This document shows, piece by piece, positions 8,392-61,400 of a stretch of DNA of 64,000 bases. The notes beneath the pieces were generated by a model. That model was not told the DNA's origin. It did no database searches and worked only from the letters and a program-made list of their open reading frames with translations. Position numbers and translations under genes: made by a program. The number at the start of each line of letters is the position of its first letter. Position 1 is the first letter of the stretch. The DNA is from Eledone cirrhosa (Eukaryota): positions 10,416,001-10,480,000 of the forward strand of contig OZ024762.1 of NCBI GenBank assembly GCA_964016885.1. Direction: 5' to 3'.

Positions 8392-8672
8392 TCATTCATT
8401 CTCTGCCTCCTTTACTGTGTTTGTGATCAGAACTATGTCATCAGCAAATTCCGCATCCGATATCTTTTTAGCCTTAACTTTCCTACTCTGAGCTAGGGCT
8501 ACAGTAAAGCCAGAGTCCTGGTGTTTCTCCAGTACAAGGCGCGTACAATGTCCACTGCGATGATAAAAAGGTAGCAAGCCAATGCATCTCCATCAGGCAT
8601 TTCAGCCAGTATCTCAAAGAACTCTGTCATCCTGTCAAGTATAATAACTTGGACTCTGTTGTTGGTGTAGAT
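8392..8672 (-). mobile_element. Decayed LINE RT fragment (also at 60658-60938)
   Basis: ISDAEFADDIVLI motif. Confidence 0.7.
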
Positions 8673-9559: not shown

Positions 9560-10078
9560 ATTTACAGTGTGGGCTGGGTGTTCTTTACAGTGTGGACTGG
9601 GTGTTCTTTACAGTGTGGACTGGGTGTTCTTTACACTGGACTGGGTGTTCTTTACAGTGTGGACTGGGTGTTCTTTACAGTGTGGACTGGGTGTTCTTTA
9701 CACTGTGGACTGGGTGTTCTTTACAGTGTGGACTGGGTGTTCTTTACAGTGTGGACTGGGTGTTCTTTACACTATGGACTGGGTGTTCTTTACAGTGTGG
9801 ACTGGGTGTTCTTTACAGTGTGGACTGGGTGTTCTTTACACTATGGACTGGGTGTTCTTTACACTGTGGACTGGGTGTTCTTTACACTGGTCTGGGTGTT
9901 CTTTACACTATGGACTGGGTGTTCTTTACACTGTGGACTGGGTGTTCTTTACACTGGACTGGGTGTTCTTTACACTATGGACTGGGTGTTCTTTACAGTG
10001 TGGACTGGGTGTTCTTTACAGTGTGGACTGGGTGTTCTTTACACTATGGACTGGGTGTTCTTTACACTGTGGACTGGG
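9560..10078 (+). repeat. 23-bp minisatellite ACAGTGTGGACTGGGTGTTCTTT expanded within a SINE-like repeat (copy at 61826-62342)
   Basis: ~22 tandem units with some 20-bp variants. Confidence 0.9.
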
Positions 10079-10229
10079 CACCTAAATTACGAGAGCTATT
10101 ATTGCTGAAAATTTATTCAAGAAATGACAGAAAGAAAGGAAATAATTTTGCAAGAATTTTATTGTAGAAACGCTTCGTGAAGAAAACCAAAAAAACTGAG
10201 AAAAGCTGGAAAGATTTAATGATGTGTCG

Positions 10230-18545
<8,316 letters not shown>

Positions 18546-18636
18546 TTTTAGAATGATTTTTATCTTCTCTGAGATGGTTTCTTCAGCTATTTGGCAACAA
18601 GAATGATTTAGAAGTGACAAAGATTCATATTTATAG
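18546..18636 (-). promoter_or_regulatory. Gene B TATA box and 5'UTR
   Basis: CTATAAATATGAA on the minus strand at 18636-18624, followed by a UTR sharing ttctaa, ttcttgttg and gaaacca motifs with gene A. Confidence 0.7.
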
Positions 18637-21722: not shown

Positions 21723-22912
21723 CAGACTTACTACCAAAGATATCTCACTTATACCATCAGACTTACTACCAAAGATATCTCACTTATACCGTCAGGCTTA
21801 CTACCAAAGATATCTCACTTATACCGTCAGACTTACTACCAAAGATATCTCACTTATACTGTCAGACTTACTACCAAAGATATCTCACTTATACCATCAG
21901 ACTTACTACCAAAGATATCTCACTTATACCATCAGACTTACTACCAAAATATCTCACTTATACCGTCAGGCTTACTACCAAAGATATCTCACTTATACCA
22001 TCAGACTTACTACCAAAGATATCTCACTTATACCGTCAGGCTTACTACCAAAGATATCTCACTTATACCATCAGACTTACTACCAAAGATATCTCACTTA
22101 TACCGTCAGGCTTACTACCAAAGATATCTCACTTATACCGTCAGACTTACTACCAAAGATATCTCACTTATACCGCCAGGCTTACTACCAAAGATATCTC
22201 ACTTATACCATCAGACTTACTACCAAAGATATTTCACTTATACCGTCAGGCTTACTACCAAAGATATCTCACTTATACCATCAGACTTACTACCAAAGAT
22301 ATCTCACTTATACCATCAGACTTACTACCAAAGACATCTCACTTATACCATCAGACTTACTACCAAAGATATCTCACTTATACCGTCAGGCTTACTACCA
22401 AAGATATCTCACTTATACCGTCAGACTTACTACCAAAGATATCTCACTTATACCGTCAGGCTTACTACCAAAGATATCTCACTTATACCATCAGACTTAC
22501 TACCAAAGATATCTCACTTATACCGTCAGGCTTACTACCAAAGATATCTCACTTATACCATCAGACTTACTACCAAAGATATCTCACTTATACCATCAGA
22601 CTTACTACCAAAGACATCTCACTTATACCATCAGACTTACTACCAAAGACATCTCACTTATACCATCAGACTTACTACCAAAGATATCTCACTTATACCA
22701 TCAGACTTACTACCAAAGATATCTCACTTATACCGTCAGGCTTACTACCAAAGACATCTCACTTATACCGTCAGACTTACTACCAAAGATATCTCACTTA
22801 TACCGTCAGGCTTACTACCAAAGATATCTCACTTATACCGTCAGGCTTACTACCAAAGATATCTCACTTATACCATCAGACTTACTACCAAAGACATCTC
22901 ACTTATACCATC
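21723..22912 (+). repeat. 35-bp minisatellite CAGACTTACTACCAAAGATATCTCACTTATACCAT (~34 units)
   Basis: Contiguous head-to-tail repeats with no spacers. Confidence 0.95.
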
Positions 22913-24944: not shown

Positions 24945-25040
24945 CTATAAATATGAAGGTAGACCACATTCTAAGTATTACATTTCTTGTTGAACATACA
25001 GGTGAATCGTTGTGAAACCACACTGAAATAATCTTTCAAG
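24945..25040 (+). promoter_or_regulatory. Gene A TATA box and 5'UTR
   Basis: CTATAAATATGAA ~95 nt upstream of the ATG; the same 13-mer occurs upstream of gene B. Confidence 0.7.
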
Positions 25041-25080
25041 ATGTTCAAGTATATAATTCTTATCTCTCTTTTTGTTGTAG
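25041..25080 (+). CDS. Gene A exon 1 (signal peptide [14 protein letters not shown])
   Basis: ATG at 25041, 40 nt, donor G|gtaagt; same length and phase as gene B exon 1. Confidence 0.85.
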
Positions 25081-26810
25081 GTAAGTCTAAATTTCAATAA
25101 TATTCTCTTTTGTTACTGTTAAAGGTATTTTCCATTTGGTTTCCTTGTAACTGCCATCTCAGTTTGTGTACATCTCCAAGACAAGTGTGAAATACAACCT
25201 TTACTGTTGCTTTAGTTTTCCAGACACTGCTAAAATATTTAATACATATGTTTCAAATGATGGTGTCGTAGGGGCACCATAGTAGCGTTCATGCCTTGGG
25301 AAGTTCAAACCTAGCAAAGCCAATCCTCATTCAAGGTTTGCCATCATTTAACACAATTAGTTTTCACCAACTTAACAAGAAGAACTGAGTAGATAAAAAG
25401 TCAGGAGTGGATAGTTCTAGAAGGCTTCAACCAACCAGTCAAAATTCTCATCTGTATTTAAATGTAATTTGTTTTTGGCAGAATTGGTAGAACAGATATG
25501 TTTCAAATGATGGTGTCATAGGGGCACCATAGTAGTGTAGATGTCTTGGGGAGTTTAACCCTTTAATGTTCAAACTGGCGAAAATCGGCCAGAATTCTCT
25601 ACCTCTGTCTGTTGAAACTGGCTGTAACTGGTCGCTCAAACTGATATTAAGGTATTGTTCTCAAAATAAATACTTTCAAAATCTCATAGATTCGATATTA
25701 TGTGAGATAATTATGTGAGGTAAAGCCTTTACCATGAAAATATAATAGCATATATAGAGTAATGTGAATGCTAAATGGTTAAACCTAGCAGAGCCCATCC
25801 TCTCTCCAGGTTTGAACACAGCTGATTTTTTCCAGAGAAGAAAGAAGGACAAAAAGAGGAAAACAGGGCCATGCTAGATCTTTTATCAGCTCTTTTCACT
25901 GGCTAAGAGTGGTGGATTGGCAGTAATGGATAGAGCATCGATCAACAGCCTTTAAGGCATAGAGTTACGCCCCTTTACGATATGATTTCAAATCCCGCCG
26001 AGGATAGCTTTGCCTTTCATCCTTACAAGGTCGATAAAATAAAGTACCAGTAATACAGTGGGGTTGATTTAATCGACTTTCCCCTCCACCAAAACTGTTG
26101 ACCTTTTGCAAAAAAAGTAGAAATAATTATTTAGAGATCACATTGTGGTGGCTTGCTTTGTGGCATTTAGTTACTTCCCTTACGATCTGAGTTCAAATCC
26201 CTCCAAGGATAGCTTTGCCTTTCATCCTTATGGGGTGAATAAAATATATCACCAGTAATGCACTGGGGTCGATTTAATCGACTTTCCCCTCCACCAAAAT
26301 TGTTACCCTTGTGCCTAAATCAGAAACCAATATTTCAGTGTCTAAATTATTGTTTTTCAGGTATAAATGGAGGCTGTACTTACCAGAAGAGAATGGGTTG
26401 TGTGATGGACAGGCTGGCAGAGACAGAAATTACAGCTAATAAATCACAAATATGCAGGTAAAGTTTTCAGTGAATTTTTTTTGTCTTGGTTTTGGTTGTC
26501 CCCCACCCAGGAAGAATGAAAAACCGTGAATATTGGATGTGGTCCATAAAAATGCTTATAAATGTCAAATGTCTCATTCATTGATACCCTACTGAGAGAT
26601 GCCAACATTGATAACATCGATGAACTGAAAAATGCCATGCTCCACCGGGACCATTGGAGAAAGATGAATCTGCGACTTTTCTTTCTGTTCTTCATTGTCT
26701 TGTCCTTTCTTTGCTAATTTTCTTAAGTTTATATATATATACACACACACACATATATATATATACACACACACACACATATATATATATATACACACAC
26801 ATATATATAT

Positions 26811-26869
<59 letters not shown>

Positions 26870-27274
26870 AAGATAATAATAAATGGAAACTATATTTATA
26901 AAACCATATTTATTTCATTATATATATTTCAAGGGTGACCAAGCAAATCTTGGTGCGCTTTCATCAGATAAAATACAAAAATTTGTTTCATAAATAATGA
27001 CAGACCTATGAAGATCACACCTTAATGGTCCGAAGATTCGCTGCACTATCCAAATATAAAACAAATTTTGTATTTTATTTTATTTGATGAAAGCGCACCA
27101 AGATTTGCTTGGTCACCCTTGAAATATATATAATGAAATAAATATGGTTTTATAAATATAGTTTCCATTTATTATTATCTTGGAATATTTACTCCAGTAA
27201 CTTGTTGAGTGCTCTATATCAGTTATAAACATTTATGTTTGTCTAAATTTCAACAAATTAAATACAACTCCTAC

Positions 27275-27325
<51 letters not shown>

Positions 27326-28167
27326 TATGTATATATATGTGTGTGTATATATATATACATACACACATGTATATATATATGTATATATGTGTGTCTATCA
27401 TCATCATCATCATCATCATCGTTTAACGTCCGTGTTCCACGCTTGCATGGGTTTGGACGGGGGTTTTCCCACTTGAGGCAAGAGTGATTGTCTTGCTCGC
27501 ATAGGACTGTCTGGCAGGTTTTCTACAGTTGGATGCCCTTCCTAACACCAACCACATTTACAGTGTGGGTCTGGGAGGTTTTTACCGTGTTGCCTACACG
27601 GCCACATTACAGCGTGGACTGTGTGTCTTTTTGTCGTGACACCTACACGATCTCATTTGTTTCGGCCTGGATGGTGTGGCACCAACATAACTTTACATAG
27701 AAGGGGGCGGTGTGGATGGGGTGGGGGTGGTGGGACGGGGGTGTATTTTGTTAGAGATGCCTACTGACTGTAGTAGGTTTTACTTTGTATTTAGGTAAGG
27801 CAGGTCTTCTCTATTACTGAGTACCGCCAAAGGTCTCGGTCCAGTGACATTGTCTTGGTGAGGTGTAAGTGTGTGAGGTCGGAGTTTATCAGCTCGTCCC
27901 AGGTTTTTCTGGGTCTGCCTATTCCGTGGCTACCGTCTATCTTTATTGCCCTGCACTTTGTTATACAGCTATCGTCCTTCATGCGCATCACGTGACCATA
28001 CCAACGTAGCCTTCTCTCTAGTAAACAACATCTGATCCCTCTTATTTCTATATATATATATCTAAACAAACACACACATATATATGTATACATACACACA
28101 CATATATATATATCCACATGCACACATGTATATACACACACACACACACATATATATATATACACAC

Positions 28168-28245
<78 letters not shown>

Positions 28246-31200
28246 CGTTTCTGAATTTGTTTAGCAAGATTCTTTATCTGAAATCGTGTGTTGAAACCGA
28301 TATTGTTATACTTTGGGAGGGTCATGTTGCCAATAAGAAACACATGCACCAGTTGCTTTCACTTCAATTTATTATTATAATAAATTTATAAATTTATAAA
28401 TTTCTGGTTGGTTGGTTGGTTCCACAACCAGATAGTTGTTTATATATTGTCATAGTTCTTTCGTCACACACTCTGTGACCTCTTCAGATGTACTGAAGGA
28501 CAATGTAGAGACAAAAATATAGTGTACATAGGTGAGACAGCTCGTAGTGTAGGGGAACGGATAAATGAACACTGGCGAGACCTTCAAGATAGTAAAGAAT
28601 CATCTGTACTCTACCAACATGCTAAAATAGAACACAAGGGTAAATTAGAGAACATAGAAATAAAAATAGAATCTACACACAGAAAAGACGCAATGTTTAG
28701 ACAAATTACAGAGGCAATAAACATAAAAGAATTACAACCAAAATTAAATAGAAAATATGAGTGGAACAGCAACATCACAACTTACAATTAAGGACAAAAT
28801 GAAAACACACACACACATAGAACAAACAACCAACCAGTAACATGTAAATAAACAAATAAATAAATGAACATAAACACACACAGACACCCGGATGTCTATA
28901 TATATATATATCATTCTGTCTGTATATATATATATATATATATCAATCTGTCTATATATATATATCATTCTGTCTATATATATATATATATCATTCTGTC
29001 TATACATATATATATATATCATTCTGTCTGTATATATATATCATTGTCTATATATATATATATATCATTCTGTCTATATATATATATATCATTCTGTCTG
29101 TATATATATATATATATATATCAATCTGTCTATATATATATCATTCTGTCTCTATATATATATATCATTCTGTCTATATATATATCATTCTGTCTATATA
29201 TATATATCATTCTGTCTATATATATATCATTGTCTATATATATATATCATTCTGTCTATATATATATCATTCTGTCTATATATATATCATTCTGTCTATA
29301 TATATATATCATTCTGTCTATATATATATCATTCTGTCTATATATATATATCATTCTGTCTATATATATATCATTGTCTATATATATATATCATTCTGTC
29401 TATATATATATCATTGTCTATATATATATATCATTCTGTCTATATATATATCATTCTGTCTATATATATATATCATTCTGTCTATATATATATCATTGTC
29501 TATATATATATATCATTCTGTCTATATATATATATCATTCTGTCTATATATATATCATTCTGTCTATATATATATATCATTCTATCTATATATTATTACT
29601 ACAAACTATTCAATGTTAGTCAGTTAGGTATTTTTGTGCCATAAAATTGAATGGAGTTGTCTCACTTACATATTGAATGTATTAAATAATTCTCCAGTCT
29701 GTGGCATTTGAGACGTTTGGTGGAGTTGGGCCACTGACAGCGAAGTTCTTGTCGTTGCTGGTGGCTCCCCTTACTGAGGTGTCAGGTGATGGCTGTGAGG
29801 GTACTTGGCTGTCTCAGTGTCTTACCCTCGCCATCCCCTGGCCTTACTGAGGTGTCAGGTGTTGCCTATGAGGGTATCTGGCTGTTTTAACACCTTACCC
29901 TTGCCATCACCCGGCCTTACTGAGGTGTCAGGTGATGGCCGTGAGGGTACTTGGCTGTTTCAGCACCTTACCCTCGCCATCATCCATGGCAATGCTGTGA
30001 GTGTAGTGGCTTGCTTCAAATTGTTTAGTTAACCCCTGTGATATGATGTGTCACTGATGGTCACACTTGGTGGTCAATTGATGGTCATTTTTGTTTTTGC
30101 TTCCGCCTCCTTTTTTCCTTTCTTTTTTTTCTCTCTTTTATGCATTTATATTTGTGTTTATCAACTACATTATATTTGTAATGTTCTTCTGAATGAATTG
30201 TGAGCAATTTATAATCTTATTTACACATTTGTAATGTTATTTATACAACTGTGAATAAAATACTATGTTTAACCTTTTAGCATTCACATTACTCTATATA
30301 TACTATTGCATTTTCGTGGTAAACACTTTACCTCACATAATATCTCACATAATATCGAATCTATGAGATTTTGATATTATTTATTTTGAGAACAATACCA
30401 TTACATCAGTATGAGTGGCTGGTTATGGCCAGTTTGAACAGAAAGAGGTGTGAGAATTCTGGCCGGATATGGCCGGTTCAAATGCTACAGGGTTAGAAAA
30501 CAAAACAATTCTTAAAATATAAGAAGACTAGAGCTGGACACGGTATTAACTGCTGTATTTATGCATCTTCTTTATATTTCCTCTTTATTTATTCTTATAT
30601 TAAAATTACAATTATATTGAAAATCAAACTGATCATGAAAATATTAGTTTACTCCAAAGACCCTTCAGAGGAACCCGTAGTATCAGAGCTGTGATCTCTC
30701 AATTCAGAGAAGTAACGGCTCTACCTGAAGTGACTCTCTGGTCTCCAAGCTACAAATCTGTCCAGCGATTCTTTCCTTGAGACATTCTAACCGCATGGCC
30801 ATGATATCATAGCTGTGATCTCTCAATTCGGAGAAATAGCAGCTCTACCTGGAGTGACTGTCTGATCTCTGAGTTACGCACTTTATCGATTCAATTTTCA
30901 AAATTTTAATTGCCATCATCTAAACACAAATGATCGCTTAAACAATTATATCATTGCTTTTCTTTACAGCGACATGAGCCGCATTGCAGCTTGTGAAAAT
31001 AAGTTAGGATGCCAAGGTGATAGCGGCCTCTTCTCTAACATTTGTAGTAAGTACAACTTTTGCTCTATTCCTCAGTAAGGCAGCGGGGATGGGGGGCGGT
31101 GCTCACTGAAATGAAAGTGGTGTTCAAATAAAGTTAGATGTAAAATTACTATTTCACCCCTTTTAATTCTAATAATCATATATATAAAATGCTGAAAGAA

Positions 31201-31759
31201 GTAATAGACAATTATTAAGTATATAAATAAATAAATAAATAAAAGCCATTGTTAATTAATAAATAAATTAACTAATACCTTAACACTTCACACAAAGTAA
31301 AATATTTTGTTTTAAACATTTTCTAACCCAGAGAAAATAGAAAAAATAAAAGGAAAAAAATAAAAAATCTTTTTTCTGCCTAATAATCGTCTTTTTCTCC
31401 CTATTTTCATATATATATATACACATATATAGAAATAGTAACACAACAGTTAGTTCACCATACCGAGAACAGTTGTTTCACCTTAGCGGACTTTCAGAAG
31501 GTGAAACAATTGTTCTCGGTATGGTGAACTAAATGTTGTGTTACTATTTTTACCAAATATATATATATATATATGTACATATATATATATATATATATAT
31601 ATGTACATATATATATATATATATGTACATATATATATATATATATATGTACATATATATATATATATGTACACATATATATATATATATATATGTACAT
31701 ATATATATATATATGTACATATATATATATATATATGTACATATATATATATATATATA

Positions 31760-31795
<36 letters not shown>

Positions 31796-31899
31796 TATAT
31801 ATATATATATATGTACATATATATATATATATATGTACACATATATATATATATATATATGTACATATATATATATATATGTACATATATATATATATA

Positions 31900-31932
<33 letters not shown>

Positions 31933-32097
31933 GTACATATATATATATATATGTACACATATATATATATATATATATGTACATATATATATATATATAT
32001 ATGTACATATATATATATATATATATGTACATATATATATATATATATATGTACATATATATATATATATATATGTACATATATATATATATATATA

Positions 32098-32143
<46 letters not shown>

Positions 32144-32164
32144 TATATATATATATATATGTAC

Positions 32165-32195
<31 letters not shown>

Positions 32196-35100
32196 CATGC
32201 AGAAGGAAGGGGCTGGCAAAATGCTATAATGAGGTGTGTTGTCTCCTTTTCGGGTTTACCGGCTACATAGCCTATTCATATATTTTTATCTCTATTTCAA
32301 CAGCTGATAGTAACTGTAGCCCTAGGAAAGCAGCTAATTGTATGGAAAAGCTTATGGCTGCTATGGAGGTTTTAATGGGTTCTATAAATAGGTAAGTATA
32401 TATTTATAAGAATCTCACCATTTCAGAAAAGAACTGATTAAATATCAAAGTAACACATTGAGTAGGGGATATTCATCTGCTATTTCTTCCTTCTTATATT
32501 ATATTCACACAATAGCCCTTCGTCATGTGGTAATATTCTGTCCACCAGGGCCACAGGCTGGCCAGCGCGTGAGCCCTCATTTGTTAATAATAGTCTTGCT
32601 CTGGGTCTACCCCTTTGGTCTCCTGTTGGTTGATTTTACCCATGAAATCTGTCCAGTGATTCTTTCCTGAGACATTCTAACCACATGTCTGTTGTATTGG
32701 AGTTGTGATCTCTCAATTCAGAGATTCTTTCCTGAGACATTCTAACCACATGTCCATAGTATCAGAGCTGTGATCTCTCGATTCAAAGATTCTCTACTAA
32801 GACATTCCAACCACATGCCCATAGTATTGGAGCTGTGATCTCTGAACCCAGAGGTTCTTTCCTGAGACATTCTAACCACATGCCCATAGTATTGGAGCTG
32901 TGATCTCTGAACCCAGAGGTTCTTTCCTGAGACATTCTAACCACATGCCCATAGTATTGGAGCTGTGATCTCTGAACCCAGAGGTTCTTTCCTGAGACAT
33001 TCTAACCACATGCCCATAGTATTGGAGCTGTGATCTCTCAACCCAGAGGTTCTTTCCTGAGACGTTATAACCACATGCCCATAGTATTGGAGCTGTGATC
33101 TCTGAACCCAGAGATTCTTTCCTGAGACATTCTAAACACATGCCCATAGTATCAGAGCTGTGATCTCTCAATTCAGAGATTCTTTCCTGAGATATTCTAA
33201 CCACATGTCTGTAGTATCAGAGCTGTGATCTCTCAAATCAAAGATTCTTTCCTGAGATATTCTAACCACATGTTCATAGTATCAGAGCTGTGATCTCTTG
33301 ATTCAAAGATTCTTTCCTAAGACATTCTAATCACATTACTATATTATCATTGTTGTAATCTCTCAATTCAGAGATTCTTTCCTGAGATATTCTAAGCACA
33401 TTCCCATAGTGTTGGAGCTGTGATCTCTGAACACAGAGATACTTTCCTGGGACATTATAAGCACATGCCCCCCATAGTATCAGAGCTGTGATCTCTCAAC
33501 CCAGAGGTTCTTTCCTGAGACATTATAACCACATGCCCATAGTATTGGAGCTGTGATCTCTCAACCCAGAGGTTCTTTCCTGGGACATTATAACCACATG
33601 CCCATAGTATTGGAGCTGTGATCTCTCAACCCAGAGATTCTTTCCTGAGACATTATAACCAGATGCCAATATTACTGGAGCTGTGATGGCCCTAGCTGGA
33701 ACAATTCCTTGACCTCAGCTACACACTCTGTTGAGTAACATTACTTCAAGACCCTTCTTCTTTGCCCACTTATTCCTTGGAGGGCCGTGGGAGGACAGAG
33801 TCCTAAAGCACTCCTTCCAGCGGGTCCAGTCAGAAGCCACTATTTCCAACTGATCCCCAAGCATGACCAACCAAGCTCATGGATGTTATCCAACCATCTT
33901 GCTCAGGGTGGGTCTACTCCTGGGTCTCCTGTCGGTTGCTTTTGCCACAATTTAAGAAAAAATTTAAAATATATATTTCTGATCTTTTACAGTCAAATAG
34001 ACGCCGCGGTAGGCTGCTTCACACCTACCAAATGTCTTGATGTGGAAGATATGCCAACATCAGATAAAAATATCTGTAGTAAGTCTTCTTCTTTATATTA
34101 ATCAATGTTGGGTGTCGGACAACATGCTTTGTGGCATATAGTTAGGACCCTTTACGTTCTGAGTTCAAATCCCGCTGAGGGTAGCTTTGCCATTCATCTT
34201 TATGGGTTTGATAAAATAAAGTACCAGTAATGCACTGGGGTTGATTTAATTGACTTTGCCTTCCCCTTCCATTGCTGGCCTTGTGCCTAAAGTACAAACC
34301 ATTATTGTTATTATTATTGCTCAAAATTTGTCAACATTACAACACTAACTCGGTGGAATGGCAGTATCGGTAGAGAGTCAGACGCCATGCTTTGCAGCAC
34401 AGAGTTACGGCCCTTTATGATCCGAGTTCAAATCCCGCCGAGGTTAACTTTGCCTTTCATCCTTACGGGGTCGATAAAATAAAGTACCAGTAATACACTG
34501 GGGTAATTGCTGGCCTTAAGCCAAAAGTGGAGACAATAATAACACTAACTCACGATATATATTTTAATGTTAACCTTAGGAATAGGCCATGACATAAACA
34601 TATTTGAAACAGCCTGTAATACCAGGGGCAATGGAAACATTTCTAGATTAAGGGCTGAGGGGGGGGGGGGGGGGGGGGGGCAAATTTGGTAAATTTAGTT
34701 GTAGTGATTCGTTTAGCTCTTTTCACTCTAAAATGGTGAGAAAATGCAATTTGAGTCCAAGCAGTTTTCAATAATTTTAAAATGACTAGCAGAAAACCAC
34801 CCCTAAATATAATATAATTATTAGTGTGGTTCCACTTGCCCTAAATATAATATAATTATTAAGAGGCTCCACTGGCCCTAAATATAATATAATTATTGGG
34901 AAGTTCCACCACCCCTAAATATAATATAATTATTGGGAAGTTCCACCACCCCTAAATATTATATAATTATTGGGAGTTCCACCACCCCTAAATATAATAT
35001 AATTATTGGGAGTTCCACCACCCCTAAATATAATATAATTATTGGGAAGTTCCACCACCCCTAAATATTATATAATTATTGGGAGTTCAACCACCCCTAA

Positions 35101-35997
35101 ATATAATATAATTATTGGGAAGTTCCACCACCCCTAAATATAATATAATTATTGGGAAGTTCCACCACCCCTAAATATTATATAATTATTGGGAGTTCCA
35201 CCACCCCTAAATATAATATAATTATTGGGAGTTCCACCCCCCCTAAATATAATATAATTATTGGGAAGTTCCACCACCCCTAAATATTATATAATTATTG
35301 GGAGTTCCACTTGCCCTAAATATAATATAATTATTGGGGAGTTCCACCACCCCTAAATATTATATAATTATTGGGAAGTTCCACCACCCCTAAATATTAT
35401 ATAATTATTGGGAGTTCAACCACCCCTAAATATAATATAATTATTGGGACGTTCCACCACCCCTAAATATAATATAATTATTGGGAAGTTCCACCACCCC
35501 TAAATATAATATAATTATTGGGAGTTCCACCACCCCTAAATATAATATAATTATTGGCAGGGTTCCACTAGCCCTAAATATAAACTATAATATCAATATG
35601 CACACTACACATGCCACCGAAGGGTGGTTTTTCTGCTAGTGTAATATAATTATTGAGAGGTTACACCACTCCTAAATATGATAAAATTATTGGGGTCTTC
35701 CACTGCCGTTAAACCTTGGGAACAGGCCATGATATCAAATATCTTTAAACCCTTCAGCATTTAAACTGGCCATATCCGACTGCAGCAAGCCACTTATACT
35801 GATGTTATGGTATTGTTCTGAAAATAAATATCAAAATCTCATAGATTCGATATTATGTGAGATAAATATATAAGATAAATCCTTTACCGTGAAAATATAA
35901 TAGTAAATATAGAGTAATGTAAATGCTAATGGGTTAAACAGCCTCTATTATTAATGCTATCTTCTTTATTTCAGTTCCTTTGAATTCAACCGTGTAA
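25041..35997 (+). CDS. Gene A: spliced secreted cysteine-rich protein, 136 aa (exons 25041-25080, 26361-26457, 30970-31046, 32304-32391, 33993-34078, 35975-35997)
   Basis: Six GT-AG exons join in frame (phases 1,2,1,2,1) to [136 protein letters not shown]. Hydrophobic signal peptide, upstream TATA box, AATAAA at 36079, and cysteine pattern shared with gene B. Confidence 0.85.
26361..26457 (+). CDS. Gene A exon 2 ([14 protein letters not shown]...KSQIC)
   Basis: tgtttttcag acceptor, AG|gtaaag donor, open frame with C-x7-C-x17-C. Confidence 0.85.
27795..28045 (-). mobile_element. RTE LINE 3' ORF2 fragment
   Basis: [12 protein letters not shown]...GRPRKTWDE...DRDLWR. Confidence 0.8.
28495..28870 (+). 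mobile_element. Penelope-like element GIY-YIG endonuclease fragment
   Basis: [16 protein letters not shown]...[19 protein letters not shown]. Confidence 0.8.
28890..29590 (+). repeat. Compound satellite CATTCTGTC(TA)n
   Basis: Direct reading. Confidence 0.9.
30970..31046 (+). CDS. Gene A exon 3 ([15 protein letters not shown]...NIC)
   Basis: tttctttacag acceptor, A|gtaagt donor, phase 2 to 1. Confidence 0.85.
31558..32196. repeat. Compound microsatellite GTAC(AT)n
   Basis: Direct reading. Confidence 0.9.
32304..32391 (+). CDS. Gene A exon 4 ([13 protein letters not shown]...GSIN)
   Basis: tctatttcaacag acceptor, AG|gtaagt donor, phase 1 to 2. Confidence 0.85.
32660..33690 (+). repeat. 65-bp minisatellite (~16 units) in gene A intron 4
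   Basis: CCTGAGACATTCTAACCACA recurs at 32666, 32731, 32796, 32861 and so on. Confidence 0.9.
33993..34078 (+). CDS. Gene A exon 5 ([15 protein letters not shown]...KNIC)
   Basis: tcttttacag acceptor, A|gtaagt donor, phase 2 to 1. Confidence 0.85.
34796..35582 (+). repeat. 36-37-bp minisatellite ACCACCCCTAAATATAATATAATTATTGGGAAGTTCC (~21 units)
   Basis: Tandem units in gene A intron 5. Confidence 0.9.
35975..35997 (+). CDS. Gene A terminal coding exon (IPLNSTV*)
   Basis: cttctttatttcag acceptor, TAA stop, AATAAA at 36079-36084. Confidence 0.65.
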
Positions 35998-49526: not shown

Positions 49527-52470
49527 CTGTGCTCCCGCAAAGGGTGCTCTACGCCTTGGCCGACCAGGCCCGAAACCCAGGTTAATTAGACTGTCGTTTT
49601 CAAACTCAACTGAGGCACGTTCATACCTTGTAGCCTCTGATAAAGCTAGGCGTGAAAGTCGGATTGCTTTCCGAACACGCCCTGGTCTTCCACCTGATGT
49701 CCGCCCAAAGTTGCGTGCTGCAGCTTCCCTAAACCGCAGCTCGGCAGAACATGAAAGCTTCAGCCTACGAGATGTTGGGCAGATATGGAAGTTTGTTAAG
49801 GCTGGCGAATCATGGAAAAGAGACACCAGCTGGTCTGAAAACACGTTCGGTCAAATCTGTCGGCAATTCCTTGTGCTGATTTGAACCAATCACAGCAGGA
49901 AGTTTTTTTCTGCGATATACGTATGACCATGTCAACACTGCTACTTGGAGTCGTTTACCGTCCCCCAAATTACCATCAGGACACTCAACTTTGTGATATC
50001 CTCAGAGCTGCTGCCAGGAAGACAGCCACTTATGTTTTCATTGCAGGTGACTTCAATCAGCCTGAGATTGACTGGGAAACCTTTCGTTGGCCGCCAAGTG
50101 CAAATGACTTCCTTGAGCTGGTGCTGGACTCGAGTTGGTCCCAGGTGGTCACCTCCCCAACGAGAGGTGACAACACTTTGGACCTACTCTTCACCACTAC
50201 TCCTGAAACGGCCATTAGTGTTACTGCTGAGGAACCTTTAGGTGACTCTGATCATGCTATGATCATTGCCAATCTATCCCTCATGGGCAGTGACAAGAAC
50301 CACAACCATCTCCAAAGTGCTCACTTTGACTGGAATAAAGCAGACTGGAACTGTTACTGCACCGAGTTGCAATGGCCAAACTGGCTTGAGTTCTACGACT
50401 CTGGAGATGTCAACACTGTACTCCAGAACATCCTGAGCAGCATCGGTGCCACGTAAGCGGAAAAAACATCCCAAAAGCGCAATTTGGGAGACTGCAGCAG
50501 TCTGTCTTGCCAGAAAAGAACGGCGCAATGCTGAACGTGAGTACAAACTTCACAAATCAGACATTAATAGGAAGAGGCGAAATAGATCGTCCAACCACCT
50601 CAAACAGGTGACAAAAAAGGCAGTGCTTCAATTTGAGCAGCGCATAGCAACCAGCCCTGACAGTAAGGTGTTCTGGAAGTATGTTCACTTAAAGCAGAGG
50701 CCTCACTCTCCAGTTGGTCCTCTTCGCAATCCCCACACAAGCCATGCGCAGAGCTCATTGCTGAATGCTATTCAGGCATTTTCACTATTGAAGACCAGAG
50801 TGTACCATCTCCACCACCTATGACACCGGACTCTATTACAACCATGGAATTTACACCTGCAATGCTGCGACGTCACCTAAAAAATCAACGCAACCATGCC
50901 TCTCCTGGTCTTGATGGTGTTACGTACCTGCTTCTTAAACGTGGTGGGTACTTCCTTCTACACCAGTTATCATGCTTCTTCCAATTCTGTCTGAACAACG
51001 GTGCTACTCCAGAACAGTGGAAAACTGCCAGTGTCATTCCTCTGTTCAAAAAGGGTGACCGCACATCACCTGTAAACTATCGTCCAGTCAGTCTTACTAG
51101 TTGCATCGCCAAACTGATGGAATCCTGTGTCAGAGAAACACTTTGGAACTTCTGGAGCTCTCACAGTCTTATCCGGCCCTTGCAATTTGGATTTATCCCC
51201 AACTCCAGCTGCTGTGATCAACTTATAGAGTTTCTTGAGGACATCACCCGGATCACTGATGGCGGCTCATGGGTGGATGTTGTTTACCTTGACTTTGCGA
51301 AGGCCTTCAATTCTGTGCCACACAAAAGGCTTATGGCAAAACTCTTTGCAATGGGTGTGAAGGATGATCTTTTTAACTGGTTGAAGTCCTTCATTCTCAG
51401 TCGAAGAGAGGTAGTCACGGTTCTGGGACAGCATTCCTCACCATATGAGATGTCATCTGGTGTACCACAGGGATCTGTTCTTGGCCCCCTTTTGTTTGTG
51501 GCATATATTAATGACATAGATGCCAACTTAAGGAATGCCACAGTACTAAAGTACGCAGACGACATCAAGCTGTACCTTGAGATAAAAAGGACAGATCCTG
51601 AACACTATAGATCTTGCTTGCAGTCTGACCTGGACACAATACAACAATGGATCTCAGACTGGCAACTCAAGCTAGCTGTGGACAAGTGCACCACCATACA
51701 TTTTGGGAGTAAAAACCCAGCGTCCACATACTCCCTCCACAGCACTCATATCAAGAAGTCTTCCTGTGAACGTGACCTGGGCATTACGGTCAGCAGCGAT
51801 TTGCGTTGGACGAGGCACGTCTCTAAAGTTGTCAAGAGGGCCGAGGGTGTCTTAGCATCACTCAGCAAGACCTTTGTCAGCCGCTCTCCAGATATCTATT
51901 TAAGGCTGTATACAGGCTATGGTGCGACCACACTTAGAATTTGCATCACCAGTCTGGAACCCCTATCTTGCTCAGGACATTGACCGCCTGGAAACTGTTC
52001 AGAGACGTGCAACCAAGCGAATACCCTCCATCAGGCATCTACCATACTCTGAGCGCCTTGCTTCCCTGGGCATGGATTCATTGAAGCTCCAACGTCTGGC
52101 AACTGACTTGGTAAACCCCCACAAAATTGTTAACCATGTTGCCAACAACAACCCTGAGTACCTTTTTGATTTCCATGTGTCTAACACACGTGGACATGCC
52201 CACAAAGTAAGAAAACAGCACAGTTCCCATGACTTTCGGAAACATTTTTTCACGCTCAGAGTTGCTGAAGCATGGAACAAACTACCTGCATCAGTTGTTA
52301 GCTGTCGAGACACTGCATCCTTTAAGGCCTCCATGCTTCCCAAGATCCGCCAACACTACAGCTAACACATACACACATGTACTTCCCTGACATTTGTGTA
52401 TTATTCTATGTACTATATTGACGAGTTGTAGTGCACCTGAGCACTTTACACAATAATTTCATTATTATTA
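49527..52470 (+). mobile_element. CR1-clade LINE: ORF1 C-terminal fragment plus frameshifted ORF2 (APE endonuclease and reverse transcriptase), (TTA)n tail
   Basis: RLGRPGPKPRLIRLSF (ORF1-like); GVVYRPP, IAGDFN, PTRGDNTLDLLF, GDSDH (APE); YLDFAKAF, GVPQGSVLGP, YADD (RT); VRPHLEFASPVW, TRGH...FFTLRV at the C-terminus. Split across ORFs 49881, 50446, 50820, 51919. Confidence 0.92.
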
Positions 52471-55400
52471 TAATGTCTTCTACATACAAAAAATAGATGC
52501 CTTGATAAAATATCCAGAGTTTTATGTAAGTATCCTCGGGAAAAGTAGTAGAGAAGAGTGTTTTAACTTTGCCTTGTGTGTATGTAGATGCTGCATATAT
52601 ACGATACTTCGAAGTAAGTGTGTTTATGTATAGAGAGAGGGTCTGTATTCTATATACTACAGTTTCTTATATAGCTCCGGATACTGTGTATAATGAGGAG
52701 ATATACCTTTCTTCTAAGTAAGTATATACAGAGAAGGTGTAATAGAGATACGATTATAATATAAATATATAGTTGATATGATGTGTGCAAGAGAGAATGC
52801 TGAGTTGGAGTAAAGGTGGTGATGCCGAGGTAACTCGACGTAGAAATTACGATGCTATAAGGTATAGAGAGGAAAGTAGCATGTATGTTTAGTTAGAAGA
52901 GGTAGCTGCGTGTATATATTATTTGTTTTGTTTTGTTTCTCGGAAGGAGGTTTAGTTCTGTGAAGAGTGTTTAGACTAAATTTAAAAGACATGGCAACTA
53001 AAACACTACAAGAATGTATTTATATTGAAGAATTAAATGTATGTATATTTCCAAGATAGTGAAATGTATTTTTGTGTCTCAATAATATTCGTGAGTGTGA
53101 ATAAAACTTTACAAACCTCTTTACACGACCGTAAAATCCAAACCGGTATCGTTAATGGTCCCAGAGTAAGTAGAATGATGTTACCGCTTCAATACACTGA
53201 AAAGAAATGACAACAAAGTAAGAAGAGTTCCACAAACCGGAAGTAGTTCAATGTAAACAAAGGGCAAATAATTCAAATTAAGGGGAGATAACTCTCGTCA
53301 AATTGTTTGGCAAAAACTCATGCGAGAGCAGGCCAGCATAAAGCCAGCCTGCTGTGGTCCCGGCCGACCCCCGCAACGATTCGAACTTCAGACACGATCG
53401 AGTGGTCATGCCATACCGAAGTACGACAGCGAAGCCAGAAGCGCTACGTGCAGCGCCACGCACAAGCCGCAATTCTACAGAGTCAAATAGGCATACTTAT
53501 AGCTAACATTTTCTTTCTTTTTTAAAAAAAAAAAGAAACGGAAAGAAAGCGAGATAACACGACATATTCCGAGTGTTATCTCGCTTTCTTTCCGTTTCTC
53601 TCTATATATAAATATAACGGGATATATAGCAATTAAGGAACTACTAGTATTTTGTACATATATAACGGGATATACACGAATAGAAGCCAGGGAATATGTA
53701 GAAAGGTGTTGACTTATATAGGGAGTCAATAGTTTAACCGTTTTCGCCAACTACAAATTCTACGTAAATAAGATTCGGATTTTTACCCATTTCTCAGACA
53801 TAAGATAGGGAGGAGGGTCACCTTATATTCGAGTATTTTGTACATATATTCTTGTTAGACTAGACTGGCATCATCATGTGTTGAGCCGACCAGGTGCTAC
53901 TGCGTTGAACGAGAGTAAGGCTGTGGGCTGATGCGTCACTCCGTTGGAAACGTGGTGGTCCCATCTGATGTTTTAGATGGTCCTCAGGGCTCTGCTATCG
54001 AAGCTGTCAATCGTCTTTGTGAGGAGCCACGTTTCTACAATTAATATGTAGTTAAATATACTTCAAGATGGTAACATAGCCTTAGACAGATCTATATATG
54101 TAATAGTTAGTGTCGATTTGAGTAATCTTAAGACCATGATTCCAATCATCAATATATGTATTGATGAAACCTAAATATAGTCTGTTCTAGGCTTCTTACC
54201 AGTTTCTTTGGAATTAAGTGTCTGAGAGTATAGGACGCTGAGTGTACTGGAGAAATGTGAAATGGTTTTAAAGACTTACATACAGAACTTCCAAGCTGTG
54301 AGAGTTACATGTATGTATGGACCCGTAACTCCTGAGGGAGGCAACGCATTGACCTACAGTGTTTCTAGGGCTCTTTTAAAAACCTGGCAGAGCCCAGGTC
54401 TGAATACAGCGGATTTCTTCTAGAGAAGTATAGAGGAAGAATCAACCCCGAATGGATGAAATGGGATTTGAATTCAGACAGCTGAAATGAAGGCATTCTA
54501 TCTGTTACATTTATATATACATACTTTCTTTGTCTAATAAACAAAACTAAATCTTCTCTAAACACACACATAAAGTTACATTTATATAAACGTTCTTCTG
54601 TACAAAAACGAGGGTCAACTGAAAAGCTCATCGGCTGACTATGAAGGAGTGAAATCTTGCATGCATTAATTTCAACCCTCCTTACTAATAACTGCATTGT
54701 TTCTTTCCATTTGGTCAGTCAGCCCTCTTACATAGATACTTCTGATTCTCTTTTTTACTAAGAAACATAATTAAACCTTCTCTACACAGGAAAACACTAC
54801 TGCCATCTTCAAAGGAATGTAAATAAACTTCCTTATCTAGCGACGAACATGTGAAATAAACCAAACTTTTGCTTTTTCATTTCTTCTAAGAAACAAGACA
54901 GCTAACTCCAATAAGTGTGTATACAAAAAAAATGTCTACACACTTCAGGAAAAGAAAAATTTGTATAAATATATATTTAGCACCCATCCACCATCTGAGT
55001 GAATCTCTTGGTCAGTGCCCAAGTCTCAGACCCGTACAGCAACACAGATGAATCTTCAAGTCTTTACGAAGGTCCGATCTCAAACAGTGACAGGCTTTGC
55101 TCCAATGCTGAGGATGGCTCTGAACATTAATCAGTATACACTGAGGATGAAGAGCTCTGAGCTGTACAGGAGCCTCTCGAAAGTAACACAGAGGAGATTG
55201 AGGTTAGCTGGACATGCTCACTGATATTCAGAGTTGATACTGCACTCAGTGGTCCTGTGGGAGCCCCTCCGCGGACAGAGGGAATTTTACCCACCCTAGA
55301 TATATACATACAAAAGATGAATTTCCATGTTGAGATATCTTGATTCAAGAAATGTATTATTGAATATATGTATCTTTTCCCGAAGTGTGAATACATTTTA

Positions 55401-58400
55401 TTGGCGGATTCTATATATATATATATATATACAAACAAAAGAGTAAACCTTTCAGCAACCAATATACCTTATGAAAAATTTCAGCAAGTGGCCTTGGAGT
55501 GAAAGGACTGGAGATCAGGAACTTCGAGTCTGGTTGTATCCCTAGGCTGCAACAGGAAGGAGAAAAACATTATCAAAAATACCAGCAACATTATCCTCAC
55601 CCTTGGCAGGACTAAAATGTCATACCCAACATAAACATCCAAATCAAATAGGTTGTTTGGATCCTCATATATATTTATATAACCAAATTTAATATAGAAA
55701 TAGTCTACAGGACTAGAACTGTTTTCCTTCGAATGAAACAGTTCTAGACCTGTAGAAGCCATTTCTATATTAAATGTTGTTGTATACACTCTACTAATGT
55801 ATTGAGAACCTTACTACGGTTACCCCCCGATTGAACCCAGGACTCATATATATGGTAGGTATGTGTGTAACTATAGTTACAGCCAAAATCTCTTTTTGTG
55901 AGGATATGAGCTAGACTAACTAAAATAAGTCAGTTTTACTTACAAAGTTCCCCAACCCTGGTTTCTGGACATCAGAAAACAACATTAACCATTCCAATAC
56001 ATTAGAAGAATGACAATTCCATCATCAGGATAAGAAGTCTTTGGAATAACAGGAGTTGAATACATACCATGTCGTTGCCGACTGCATGGTGTCCAACAGG
56101 TTGTGATACTGAATTACTATATGAATATATCCCACTCAATGTATGAGGACAACACAACAGGTTTATATTAATGGTAAAAATAGCAACCAAAATCAGCTCA
56201 GTATAGATGCCCTTGCTTTGGATGACTTCGGCACATAAAGTCACCATAATATTGAAGTTTTGGAGTGATAATATTCCACTCTTCCTCATTTGGTCATTCC
56301 ATGAGAATATCTTGGTCAATCAACCCTCATACATATATAAACTTAATCTTTCTTCTGCTTTACTTTTTTACTGAGAAACAAAACTAAACTTTCACTACAC
56401 AGGAAGATACTACTCCCATCTTTGAAGGAGAGTAAATAAACTGTCTGGTCTAAAGACGAAAAAAATGTGAAATAAAAGAATTAAATAAACCAAACTTTTG
56501 CTTTTTCATTTCTTCTAAAGGACATGACAGCCTCCTAGTGCTGGTGGTCTACACAATAAAAACATCCAGTGAATGCTGTAAAGTGGTGGGTGTTCGGAAG
56601 GACAAGCAATTGTAGAAAACTTGCCAAACAAGGGGTTAGGGAGATCTTTCAGTTTGTGTCAAGAGACATGACAACTTCTCTGCACTCAAAATGACCATAT
56701 GTAAGCGAGATACAGAACCCTTGGCTTGTCTGGGAGGTCAGTAGCCCTTCTTCAGTATTGAGTTGGTGTATGTAGACCTCTGGAAGGTCAGTAGCCCTTC
56801 TTCAGTACTGAGTTGGTCTATGTAGAACCCTTGGCCTGTGTGGGAGGTCAGTACTGACTTGGTTTATGTAGATATGTCTAACCTTTACTAGCAGGTGTTA
56901 AATGATATATATAAAAAAGAGGTTTAATGGATCCTTCAGTTGTGCCTCAGTACAGCAACCTCCCTAGTGTTGGTGATCTATACGATAAACGCACCCAGTA
57001 CAGGCTGTAAAATGGTCAGTGATATGAGGGGTAACCAGCAGTAGAAAGCTTGCCAAAGAAAGGGCTGGGAGGACTCTTCAGTTGTGTCAAAGACACGACA
57101 AGCTCTCCTGTACACTCAGTAGAATGTGAAAGTGTACGTAAGTGAGATACAGATCAGTAGCCCCACTTTAGTACTGACTTGGTCTATGTATACCTGTCCA
57201 ACGCTTGCTATCACAAAACAATGATGATAAAGATATATATATATACCGCCAGAGCTGTCTTACTCTATTTTACCTTTTCTAAGTCATTCTTCTTTGTCTG
57301 TAAGTTGGACTGCAGTACATATTGTTCTCTTCTATTTCTCTCATTTCACTGTATTAGATTTTCTATAAAATGTATTTCTAACGCCCGCAGCTAATTTTGA
57401 GACACAAAAATACATTTTTCTATATACAGGAATAAATCTACATACACACACAAAGCTAGATTTATATATATATATATAAACCTTCTTTACTATATGCATT
57501 CTCCTAAGGATAAAAAAAAAACCTTCTAGACACACACTTATCTCTATATATACATGTTTGAAGAGGTATGTAATGTTTTATTTGCCGTGTCCTAAATTCA
57601 TTGCCAAACAAACACTGGCAGATATTGAGAAGGAAAAAAAAAACATTTTACTATATTCTATATACAAGAAGAATTTTGTAGACGTACATATATATAAAGC
57701 TACATTTATATATAGACATTCTTTACTGTATACACCCTTTCTTTAAGAACGAAACCCCCTATATATACATACATCTTCTAAGAAACAAATCTTCTCTCTA
57801 CATATACTAATATTTATATATACATGTTTATTTTCCTTCTTGTACTTTTTCATTCACTAGACATACTTTCTTTTGAGATAAATGAAAAAAAGCAAACCTC
57901 TCTATACACACATAGAGCTACATTTTATTATCCTATCTATATCATCATTTTTAAGTCGGGTTGGTTTGTCATCTGTGAATCTCAGCAATTTGAGATCACC
58001 ACCACCAGGTCTACCTGGCATTTCTTTACCAACTCAAGCCTAGTTATGTAACTGTGTGCTTAGAGGTTTAGCATTTCTTTCTCTAGACAGTATTGATGTT
58101 ATGTTAGAGCTGTGTAATCTTGCATGTATTAATTTCAATTGTTTTTTTATATTGATTGATATCTACTTTGTTTCTTTCCAGAGGATGTTGAAGAAGTAAA
58201 CCCGATTTGGTCATTCCGTCCATCTTTCGTTTTATGTAACACTTTCTTTCTGTGGGGTGCCCCTTTCATTTTAGGTAGCACTTACTTTCTGTCGGGGTGC
58301 TTTTTTCTGGTTGCCTTCACTACAGTTTAACCCTTTAGCATTCTCACACCTCGTTCTGTTCAAACTGGCTGCTTATACAAGCATTAAGGTATTGTTCTCA

Positions 58401-61400
58401 AAATATATAATAACATCATCAAAATCTCGTAGATTCGATATTATGCGAGATAAAGCCTTTACCACAAAAATACTGCAAACAAAATAGTAAATATAGAGAA
58501 ATGTAAATGCTAAAGAGTTAAAGAACCCATGTGTACCCACTATATATACATGGAGGTCAAAAGAAGATGACAAACAAACTCAACTTAAACATGATGTTAT
58601 AGATAGGATAATAAAATGTAGCTCTATGTATGTGCATAGAAAGAAGGTTTGCTTCTTTTTTTTTTTTTATCTCAAAAGAAATTATGTGTCTAGTGATTGA
58701 AGGAAAATAAAATGTTTTGGTATCTCCGCTTGTATATATATAAATATTGGTATATATAGAGTTTTGTTTCTTAGTAAAGAATGTCTATATATAAATATAG
58801 CTTTATATATATATATGTACGTCTACAAAATTCTTCTTGTGTATAGAATATAGTAAAATGTTGGTATTTATTTTTCAATAATATCTGCCAGTGTTTGGCA
58901 ATGAATTTAAGACACGGCAAATAAAACATTACATACCTCTTCAAACATGTGTATATATAGAGATAAGTGTGTGTCTAGAAGGAGTTTTTTTAATCATTAG
59001 GAGAATACATATAGTAAAGAAGGTTTATATATATATATAAATCTAGCTTTGTATGTGTATGTAAATTTATTCTTCCGTATAGAAAAACGTATTTTTGTGT
59101 CTCAAAAGTATCGGGGAGGTGCTAGAAATAAATTTTATAGAAAGCCTAATATATGGCAAATAAAACATTATATACTTCTTTACACGAACAGAATATCCAT
59201 CACGATTTTGTCAAGGTACCGGTGTAAATCGAATGATGTCACTAGTTCAGTTGAATCAAGTAGAATGACAACATAAAAAAGAGAGACTTTTGAGGCTGTC
59301 CGTGGAAACGGTTTATGCGGAATAAGTTCCGACTACAGAAACAAAAAGGGGGCTGCGAGGCAAAATTAAGGTGATAGGGCCCTTCTTAATATGTAAAGAG
59401 GTAGGGATACATTCTATACGATGTGCACAGGGATAATAAAAGAGGTTGTGAACTGCACCCACAGTTGACAAGAAGGGGTTTCTTTACGTACTAAAGGACG
59501 CTCCACTGTTGACAAGAAAGGGTTTCTTTACGCATATACATAGATACATGCAGGGGCTTCGTTTGCCTTTAAAATGTGAGGGGGACAAACCAACAGTTTG
59601 ATAAACAATGTATTGTTTATCTATATTCACTTAGTGAGACAAATGCATATAAAAATGTTCTACAGTTCTCATTAAAATTATTGATGAGTTGATCTTTTTT
59701 AATTTTTAGTAAATGGATGTAAATATCGAACGAAAAAAATTCAATACCGATTGTAACTTAGGGGTCTACCTAAATAAACATGTAAAAATAGTGAGATTTT
59801 CTTTGTTTTTTAATTAGGAAAAAGTAGTGGGGAAAAAAGATAGTTCGACCTCGTTCTTGAAAAAGTGGGGGAGGGGGCTTGCCCTCTGGTACCCCCCAGA
59901 AATAAGGCCCTTGGATACATGTATATGGTTATATATAAGGTTACTATGGGTGAGAGGCCGGAGAATGTCTGTGAGTGGCTTAAAATTAATTAGCCAGGGT
60001 TCTTTAAAATAAAGAAGCGTAAGCACTGAAAAGAAAAAAAAGCGGCGACATCGTAATTATGACGCCGGTGTAGCTATTACGTGCGACCCATTGTTTACCT
60101 TAACCCCTTCTCACCATCACGGTAATTTGATGTTCAGGTTACAGGGAGATGTGGGATGGAATTAACTGTTTTATTAATTTACTTATATCAAACACCAAAC
60201 ACATTACCGAGGAACAAATTAAAAAACTTGGCTTCCTGAAAAAAAAAAAAATGTACCCTAACATCTTCCATGATGCAACAGTGCAGGTAAATAACTTGAC
60301 GATTTAGCGACATCAGTTCCTTCAAATTTTCTACGGGGAAATCTCAAGAACGATAACTCCGTCTTTACTTAATCGCTAAAATGGGTGCAAAAATTATCCC
60401 TCGCAACACATGTTATGGCGAAAAAAACAATATTAAAAGTATTTTGTTCGGGTTTTTAAGGGTGGAAATTTCATTACAAATGCAAGTAATAATAATTGTT
60501 TCTACTTTAAACACAAGGCCAGCAATTAATCCAGTACATTACTGGTACTTTATTTTATCGACCCCGTAAGGATGATTTAAAAATACATTGTATAACATAC
60601 GTACAACTTCGTACAGCATGCGCTGTAATCTTTTCTAGCAGATACTTCGTCTTAATCTCATTCATTCTCTGCCTCCTTTACTGTGTTTGTGATCAGAACT
60701 ATGTCATCAGCAAATTCCGCATCCGATATCTTTTTAGCCTTAACTTTCCTACTCTGAGCTAGGGCTACAGTAAAGCCAGAGTCCTGGTGTTTCTCCAGTA
60801 CAAGGCGCGTACAATGTCCACTGCGATGATAAAAAGGTAGCAAGCCAATGCATCTCCATCAGGCATTTCAGCCAGTATCTCAAAGAACTCTGTCATCCTG
60901 TCAAGTATAATGACTTGGACTCTGTTGTTGGTGTAGATCAGTTATATATATATGTGTGTGTGTGAGATCCTTGGTACAGTTAGGTATATTTGAAAAAAGG
61001 AAAAGAATGACTTCACTTGTAGTGTTAAACAATTTTTTTGATTTAATTTTATAATATATGTATATATATATATATATATAGTGTTATATTTGGGGAGGGT
61101 CATATTGTTATAATATTGCCAGAAAAATATAGTAAAACACACTCACTGTTTAGTTTGGGTTGGTGTTCGCTTCAGTATATTCCTATAATTAATTCAGCTG
61201 GTAATTAATGTTTACCATTAATTGACCAACAGTTAAAACTATAAGTATAGTTTCAGCCAGCTGAATTAATTCTCAACATGCTGGTTTCATGATTTACCTG
61301 TGATCAACATTGGTGGTTACCTCAGTCTGGATGAAATCCACATCTCCATTGCATTTAGAGCTGGTGCCAATGTCTGTGGCAGGTACCTTAACTATTTTCT

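Follow-up and report, generated by a model that had tools for sequence, protein, structure and literature searches.

The window analysed here, a stretch of 64,000 nucleotides (nt) of the Eledone cirrhosa genome (G000:C23:10,416,001-10,480,000; genome 3.0 Gb in 1796 contigs), carries two genes, A on the plus strand and B on the minus strand, arranged head-to-head with 6.5 kb between their ATGs. They belong to a family of five distinct genes (A, B, A2, B2 and B3), apparently undescribed so far, whose secreted products consist of two duplicated cysteine-rich modules and have 11 cysteines in the mature chain in all five cases. A and B are spliced and are co-expressed in one sequencing run, the head-to-head pair has been duplicated as a pair, and the divergence between sister genes is confined to the exons encoding the mature chain, an observation that goes beyond an earlier reading of this DNA made from the sequence alone. 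Whether A and B form a secreted, disulfide-linked heterodimer whose variable surface binds an outside partner is, in our judgement, an evenly balanced question.

Gene A includes a 40-nt signal exon, four cysteine-bearing exons and a short last exon, and encodes 136 amino acids with 11 cysteines spaced 7,17,8,5,10 in module 1 and 7,24,5,13 in module 2, with 4 residues between the modules. A TATA-like box (24946..24953) precedes the coding part of exon 1 (25041..25080), which encodes the signal peptide (hydropathy peak 3.24) and ends in phase 1. Exon 2 (26361..26457) encodes Cys1 to Cys3 of module 1 together with an NKS sequon, and exon 3 (30970..31046) Cys4 to Cys6; exon 4 (32304..32391) encodes Cys1 and Cys2 of module 2, with Asn in the Cys3 position, and exon 5 (33993..34078) Cys4 to Cys6, including the last cysteine, which is likely to be unpaired. 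AG acceptors are present at exons 2-5 and GT donors at exons 1-5. The probable last coding exon (35975..35997), assigned because an acceptor site and a polyA signal are present and A2 conserves it, provides a seven-residue tail and the stop codon without a hydrophobic tail of the glycosylphosphatidylinositol (GPI) type.

Gene B, on the minus strand, has the same plan, with cysteine spacings of 7,14,8,5,12 and 7,24,5,11 separated by 5 residues, and one further cysteine in the signal peptide. Its TATA-like box lies at 18628..18635 in a promoter homologous to that of A, the motif and its spacing being common to A, B, A2 and B2. The coding part of exon 1 (18506..18545) is followed by exon 2 (16574..16664; Cys1 to Cys3 of module 1, with an NTS sequon), exon 3 (13757..13839; Cys4 to Cys6), exon 4 (12317..12407; Cys1 and Cys2 of module 2, with Val in the Cys3 position), exon 5 (11107..11188; Cys4 to Cys6) and a last coding exon of two residues and a stop (10273..10281). 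Read-through of B exon 5 into a GPI tail was considered and rejected, a spliced joint to 10281 being observed; a CaaX-like end was also rejected, as it is present in B only. In B3, the usual donor of exon 5 (L028:422-510) is altered and a donor four bases further would give a short normal tail, this last donor of B3 being our assignment.

These structures were followed in transcripts from a single run, X4, which we read as RNA on the strength of its spliced contigs. For B, the joints 11188-12317 (exons 4-5) and 10281-11107 (exons 5-6) are present with GT..AG ends, so that exon 5 is spliced on both sides. For A, a contig runs from the 3' end of exon 3 through exon 4 into the first bases of exon 5, junctions 3-4 and 4-5 appearing as loose ends. 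Since the exon 4-5 junctions are seen in the transcripts of both genes, no hidden exon supplies a third cysteine to module 2. One contig of 887 nt, at a depth of 1692.1 compared with 4-14 for intron contigs, carries spliced exons of both A and B; the matches to the two genes appear to belong to one X4 record, since they have the same length, the same depth and complementary coordinates (117-204 for A and 684-857 for B). In this contig (window 32304-32391 and 11107-12408), A in antisense is apparently joined to B in sense, the two ATGs lying about 50 nt apart, and exon lengths explain all but those 50 nt. Two abundant transcripts were probably fused into a chimera during library preparation or assembly; a genomic A-B fusion was rejected, as the two known pairs have 6.5 kb and 4.7 kb between their ATGs. 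The contig nevertheless shows A and B expressed together in a single sample, and additional large exons would not fit into it.

The sequence-only reading had proposed that exons 2+3 and 4+5 are duplicated modules bounded by phase-1 introns, and the internal duplication is confirmed. The modules are alike beyond their cysteines: with cysteines excluded, each of the 10 modules in the family scores above shuffled sequences when compared with modules of the other types (z 2.1-3.6, p up to 0.019), and in every gene both modules have an internal phase-2 intron that interrupts the codon following the Cys3 position. The phase-1 boundaries hold for module 1 and for A-type module 2, while B-type module 2 ends in phase 0 (B and B2). 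The spliced contigs bear out the proposed count of six cysteines in module 1 and five in module 2, the latter lacking Cys3, in both A and B. The data also support the suggestion that this loss preceded the A/B split: Cys3 is absent from module 2 in 5/5 genes, where its position is occupied by Asn, Val, Arg, Leu and Gln, and the Cys2-Cys4 gap is 24 in all. The Ile/Leu before the Cys3 position is kept in module 2. A sequon shortly before Cys3 (NKS, NTS) is present in A and B as described, but in A2 the sequon closely follows Cys3 and it is missing from B2 and B3, so a sequon conserved across the family was rejected.

Small residues occur at positions 15 and 17 in all five genes, and signal cleavage probably takes place after residue 17. 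The stop codon lies 3-7 residues past the last cysteine in 5/5 genes, with no second hydrophobic segment. The odd number of mature cysteines in every gene supports the earlier claim that at least one cysteine per chain has no internal partner; one cysteine must therefore be free, capped or bonded outside the chain. This spare cysteine has persisted in 5/5 genes although most other residues have been exchanged, which makes a partner probable. The other chain is a candidate that we put at about an even chance, since the two genes lie head-to-head, have matching promoters, are co-expressed and were duplicated together. The cysteine concerned would be the last one. The residue preceding Cys6 is aromatic in module 2 of 4/5 genes and in module 1 of none, which gives modest support to the idea that Cys6 of module 2 lost its partner, with repacking where a 3-6 bond vanished.

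In the mechanism that we propose, A and B would be co-transcribed from head-to-head genes with homologous TATA promoters, and each chain would comprise a signal peptide and two predicted three-helix disulfide modules. The leftover cysteine, presumably the last one, would link A to B, chains of 12.0-12.5 kDa each, in a soluble product of about 24 kDa whose four helical modules combine a fixed cysteine frame with a variable surface. Divergent variants would be maintained by selection for distinct binding specificities, with promoters and flanks remaining similar, and the product may be a gland secretion involved in chemical signalling or reproduction, or acting on prey.

The spare cysteine could instead serve in homodimers or polymers, or in anchoring to mucus or an egg coat, A and B being co-regulated non-partners with structural or antimicrobial roles like the cuttlefish egg-case proteins. 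The odd cysteine count is silent on the identity of the partner, B3 occurs without A, and SepECP1/2 of Sepia, as described in PMC4500399, are secreted cysteine-rich cephalopod proteins with a common signal peptide and differing mature parts, which form disulfide networks and are proposed to form heterodimers. However, SepECPs are much larger and carry 50-55 cysteines in different motifs (PMC4500399), a single spare cysteine per chain permits dimers and not networks, and the head-to-head pair is kept both in the unit on C23 and on the unplaced contig C558. We consider this explanation unlikely.

The closest known parallel to the proposed A-B heterodimer is found in mammals. The mouse androgen-binding protein (ABP) genes Abpa/Abpbg form 5'-5' pairs that were duplicated as pairs and encode disulfide-bridged heterodimers (PMC2291036). 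Like A and B, the secretoglobins Abpa/Abpbg and cat Fel d 1 are small secreted chains from 5'-5' pairs duplicated as units in recent bursts, and are fast-evolving (PMC2291036). A 5'-5' pair duplicated as a unit is what A/B and A2/B2 represent. The A/B heterodimer would stand by analogy. Gene conversion is discounted for Abp (PMC2291036), whereas the A/B flanks look younger than the exons. The A/B family has no Pfam or PDB match to secretoglobins and its cysteine frame differs. Set against secretoglobin chain anatomy, the A/B chains are distinct in their two internal modules and 11 cysteines, and no sequence relation was found.

Venom-gland proteins acting on prey receptors, with an evolution like that of conotoxins in which the signal and the cysteine frame stay constant and the loops vary, form another unlikely alternative, one that is compatible with a heterodimer. 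A conserved signal exon next to variable mature exons is a conotoxin feature (PMC10561478, PMC3862624). The con-ikot-ikot or saposin-like macro-conotoxins are likewise from molluscs, helical and cysteine-rich, with a conserved signal and 5' untranslated region and divergent mature regions, and con-ikot-ikot forms dimers through inter-chain disulfides (PMC10437998). However, these toxins are homodimers with at least 10 cysteines in one saposin-like domain, and the introns of the superfamily are all in phase 1 (PMC10437998). The A/B genes depart from this frame, with phases 1,2,1,2, modules of six and five cysteines and no profile match among PDB sequences; apart from one chance match, no solved structure matches at E up to 10. 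The A/B signal motifs are absent from the supplement of an O. vulgaris salivary-gland study.

The divergence between sister genes is unevenly distributed. Signal exons are nearly identical at the nucleotide level (39/40 in A/A2, 39/40 in B/B2 and 38/40 in B/B3, or 95-97%), whereas mature exons agree at 212/346, 201/342 and 208/339 positions (59-61%) and mature residues at 44/115 in A/A2, 35/114 in B/B2 and 45/114 in B/B3, compared with 19/110 in A/B. Colinear non-coding segments are identical at 3112/3537 and 984/1137 positions (about 88%), an upper estimate for the flanks, since these segments were chosen from BLAST hits. In an anchored check of the last 150 nt before exon 5, B and B3 agree at 130/147 and B and B2 at 114/131 positions, as against 54/82 and 49/82 in exon 5 itself; many other flanks drop to 55-65% identity past 50 nt. 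Four-fold sites differ between sister genes in 6/11, 6/10 and 6/10 cases. Synonymous differences are rarer in cysteine codons (2/11, 3/11 and 2/11) than in codons of other identical residues (16/31, 9/23 and 15/33), although the numbers are small and degeneracy differs.

The ratio of nonsynonymous to synonymous substitution (dN/dS) is below 1 in 10/10 pairs (0.34-0.97), and a simple ratio above 1 was thus rejected; gene conversion and synonymous saturation are both described as confounders of this measure (PMC12737323). Mature exons seem to be of greater age than some of the DNA around them, as if old variants had been protected from homogenisation. Such a pattern would be expected if conversion or recombination homogenises the flanks while distinct exon variants are kept, and the variants may have been kept by selection for binding specificity. 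Accelerated exon change of the conotoxin type (PMC10561478) is an alternative to protected old variants.

Several points weigh against a secreted A-B heterodimer with a selected binding surface. The odd cysteine count would be just as compatible with homodimers, with capping or with bonding to some third protein, the inter-chain bond being deduced from sequence. B3, on C23, has no A-type gene head-to-head with it. Expression is documented in one run, X4. The structural half-models described below are of low confidence, the flank identities are upper estimates with many flanks diverging quickly, and the dN/dS values do not support simple positive selection.

The possibility that A/B and A2/B2 are alleles was also weighed. 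C558 could be the other haplotype, with A/B and A2/B2 as ancient balanced alleles (38% and 31% amino acid identity) whose flanks have recombined, and the pair would then be a two-gene disulfide-heterodimer unit forming an undescribed cephalopod self/non-self or mate-recognition locus with a double helical module. The confinement of synonymous divergence to mature exons is compatible with this. In DNA runs X1-X3, from one sample, B contigs have depths of 37-47 and a B2-type variant, assigned to B2, 18-26. With no single-copy gene to calibrate it, this 2:1 ratio agrees with paralogs as well as with a second haplotype, in which case one haplotype would carry B twice and the other B2 once. C558 is unplaced, and scaffold gaps at 10,370,216 and 10,559,416 bound the C23 array; outside the gene pair, no long colinear match was found between C558 and the C23 region. 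As B3 on C23 shows that true paralogs exist, we judge both the allelic relationship and the recognition locus built on it to be very unlikely.

The sequence-only reading had likened the modules to the helical cysteine motif of neuritin and of the N-terminal domain of RGM (RGM-N). The helical part of this claim is supported. Averaged over 10 modules, hydrophobicity peaks at 95-105 degrees in three inter-cysteine segments (p 0.019, 0.005 and 0.03), and two AlphaFold half-modules of 31 residues are helical, one, from exon 2 of A, at residues 7-21 and 27-30 (predicted local distance difference test score, pLDDT, 67.5) and the other at 3-12 and 25-28 (pLDDT 53.1). Three helices per module would fit these results, if weakly.

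Kinship with RGM-N found no such backing in the sequences. The modules might represent a compacted, fast-evolving offshoot of the RGM-N/neuritin three-helix domain, released from the membrane as a soluble ligand or decoy, which we regard as rather unlikely, though slightly less so than the matrix or venom alternatives. Six cysteines and a C-x8-C core are shared with RGMA and with the RGM gene of this genome (L058:1204-1758, minus strand, on G000:C5; 35.5 bits, its identity backed by 4uhy and 4uhz as matches), and a phase-1 intron precedes the domain in RGM as well. In RGM-N, three helices form a bundle held by three disulfides, and an RGD-type loop with Gly and Leu after Cys5 serves in BMP/GDF binding, including that of GDF5 (PMC7354924); three amphipathic helices are predicted here. 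Module 1 of the A type has a Gly two residues after Cys5, reminiscent of this loop, but this is so in 2/10 modules in all, and a Gly with Leu at +4 occurs in 1/10, so that no RGD/RGN-type loop is conserved. The module spacing of 7,14-17,8,5,10-13 agrees with the 4,21,8,7,21 of the genome's own RGM-N and the 4,22,8,7,21 of RGMA in the alignment at the value 8 alone, four of five spacings differing. Beyond the cysteines, RGM-N and the modules are no more alike than expected by chance (p 0.43; 150/498 shuffles score as high), though the same test detects the homology between modules, and a profile comparison with the genome's RGM-N gave an hhalign probability of 0.1. RGM-N is encoded here in one exon, whereas the modules are tandemly duplicated and each interrupted by a phase-2 intron; the A/B chains also lack the C-terminal RGM domains and a GPI tail.

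The pairing in RGM-N is 1-5/2-4/3-6; if the modules followed it, the last cysteine would be the free one, as the sequence-only reading had reasoned. Neuritin is a single domain with a GPI signal, a plan from which the A/B genes differ in their two modules and missing hydrophobic tail. None of 20 exon peptides matches the RGM_N profile (PF06535), a weak test with peptides this short; NRN1 (PF15056) matches neither the exon peptides nor the genome in an exon-wise search that is itself weak, and DUF19 (PF01579) gave no match on the exon peptides or in the genome, where the controls were silent too. Judged from spacing, loop, architecture and anchor, membership in RGM fails, and kinship of the modules with RGM or neuritin is unproven.

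Searches for homologs elsewhere found none, but at exon level they overlook even relatives no more remote than the genome's own paralogs, and the conclusion is correspondingly weak. A word-based search with A exon 5 gave no candidate. Exons of A and B gave 13 candidates, none at E up to 10, in a search whose calibration (40-60 bits for simulated copies of 70% identity, at most 5 bits for the real paralogs) limits exclusion to close relatives; with A2, B2 and B3 exons, none of 1567 candidates scored. A profile of the 10 second-half exons run against 1.84 billion proteins retrieved two matches, both to unrelated repeat proteins, a blank that is uninformative since left-out genes reached at most 25 bits (3/5) or went unreported (2/5) where about 36 were needed. 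Pfam gave matches below the cut-off (E 0.064-0.073), PDB sequences at E up to 10 one chance match in one search and none in the other, and the ESM Atlas no usable match (scores of 0.76). In the literature searched there is no prior description of the family, although cephalopod-gland sequence files and subscription papers could bear on its novelty. The lone motif match there was to mussel byssus proteins, whose signal begins in a similar way (PMC6508894); the supplements of PMC7693380 and PMC10138644 contain no motif match.

The family is expressed, a clear structural prediction follows for it (an A-B dimer, each chain having one spare cysteine), and its divergence pattern is that of molecules recognising changing partners. 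If the proposed heterodimer proves to be a pheromone, a gamete-recognition factor or a venom component, it would represent, on a new scaffold, a convergent counterpart of the mammalian ABP and Fel d 1 pairs; should the fold be RGM/neuritin-like, that scaffold would have been recruited as a soluble hypervariable ligand. Pending tissue and fold, the family counts as a secreted, lineage-restricted one whose general kind is familiar.

The A/B pair sits within a 52.3-kb tandem unit (99.65% identity across 11.7 kb), the second copy of which occupies 52270..64000, is 99.65% identical to 1-11736 and includes B exon 5 at 63452-63371. Across 780 kb of C23 and the whole of C558, A-type genes are present as two full and two partial copies and B-type genes as two full B copies, the divergent B3 and one orphan B exon 1; the second head-to-head pair, A2/B2, is on C558 with its ATGs 4.7 kb apart. 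A genome-wide search with promoters, a 3' end and exons as queries, which gives a lower bound, found no family member outside C23 and C558. The partial A copies (G000:C23:10393842-10397460 and 10526617-10530162) consist of exons 4-6, that is, module 2 without a signal exon, and exons 4 and 5 of the latter carry single-base changes. The orphan B exon 1, with part of the promoter, is 99% identical (G000:C23:10001464-10001589; L036), and no further exons of this copy were found in 9.97-10.75 Mb of C23.

The window is AT-rich, with long (TA)n tracts. Frames for a reverse transcriptase and an endonuclease of the long interspersed nuclear element (LINE) type (50667-51983 and 49839-50456) are present in each copy of the amplified unit, and a frame in A intron 2 (28456-28791) is what we take to be a GIY-YIG-like endonuclease from a Penelope-like element. 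An exon at G000:C23:10176217 on the minus strand, about 200 kb upstream of the genes, presumably encodes an ETS-like domain. Minisatellites occur at 21723-22912 (35 bases), 32650-33690 (about 65) and 34800-35590 (about 38), and the C558 pair has a shorter array of the 35-mer at the equivalent place.

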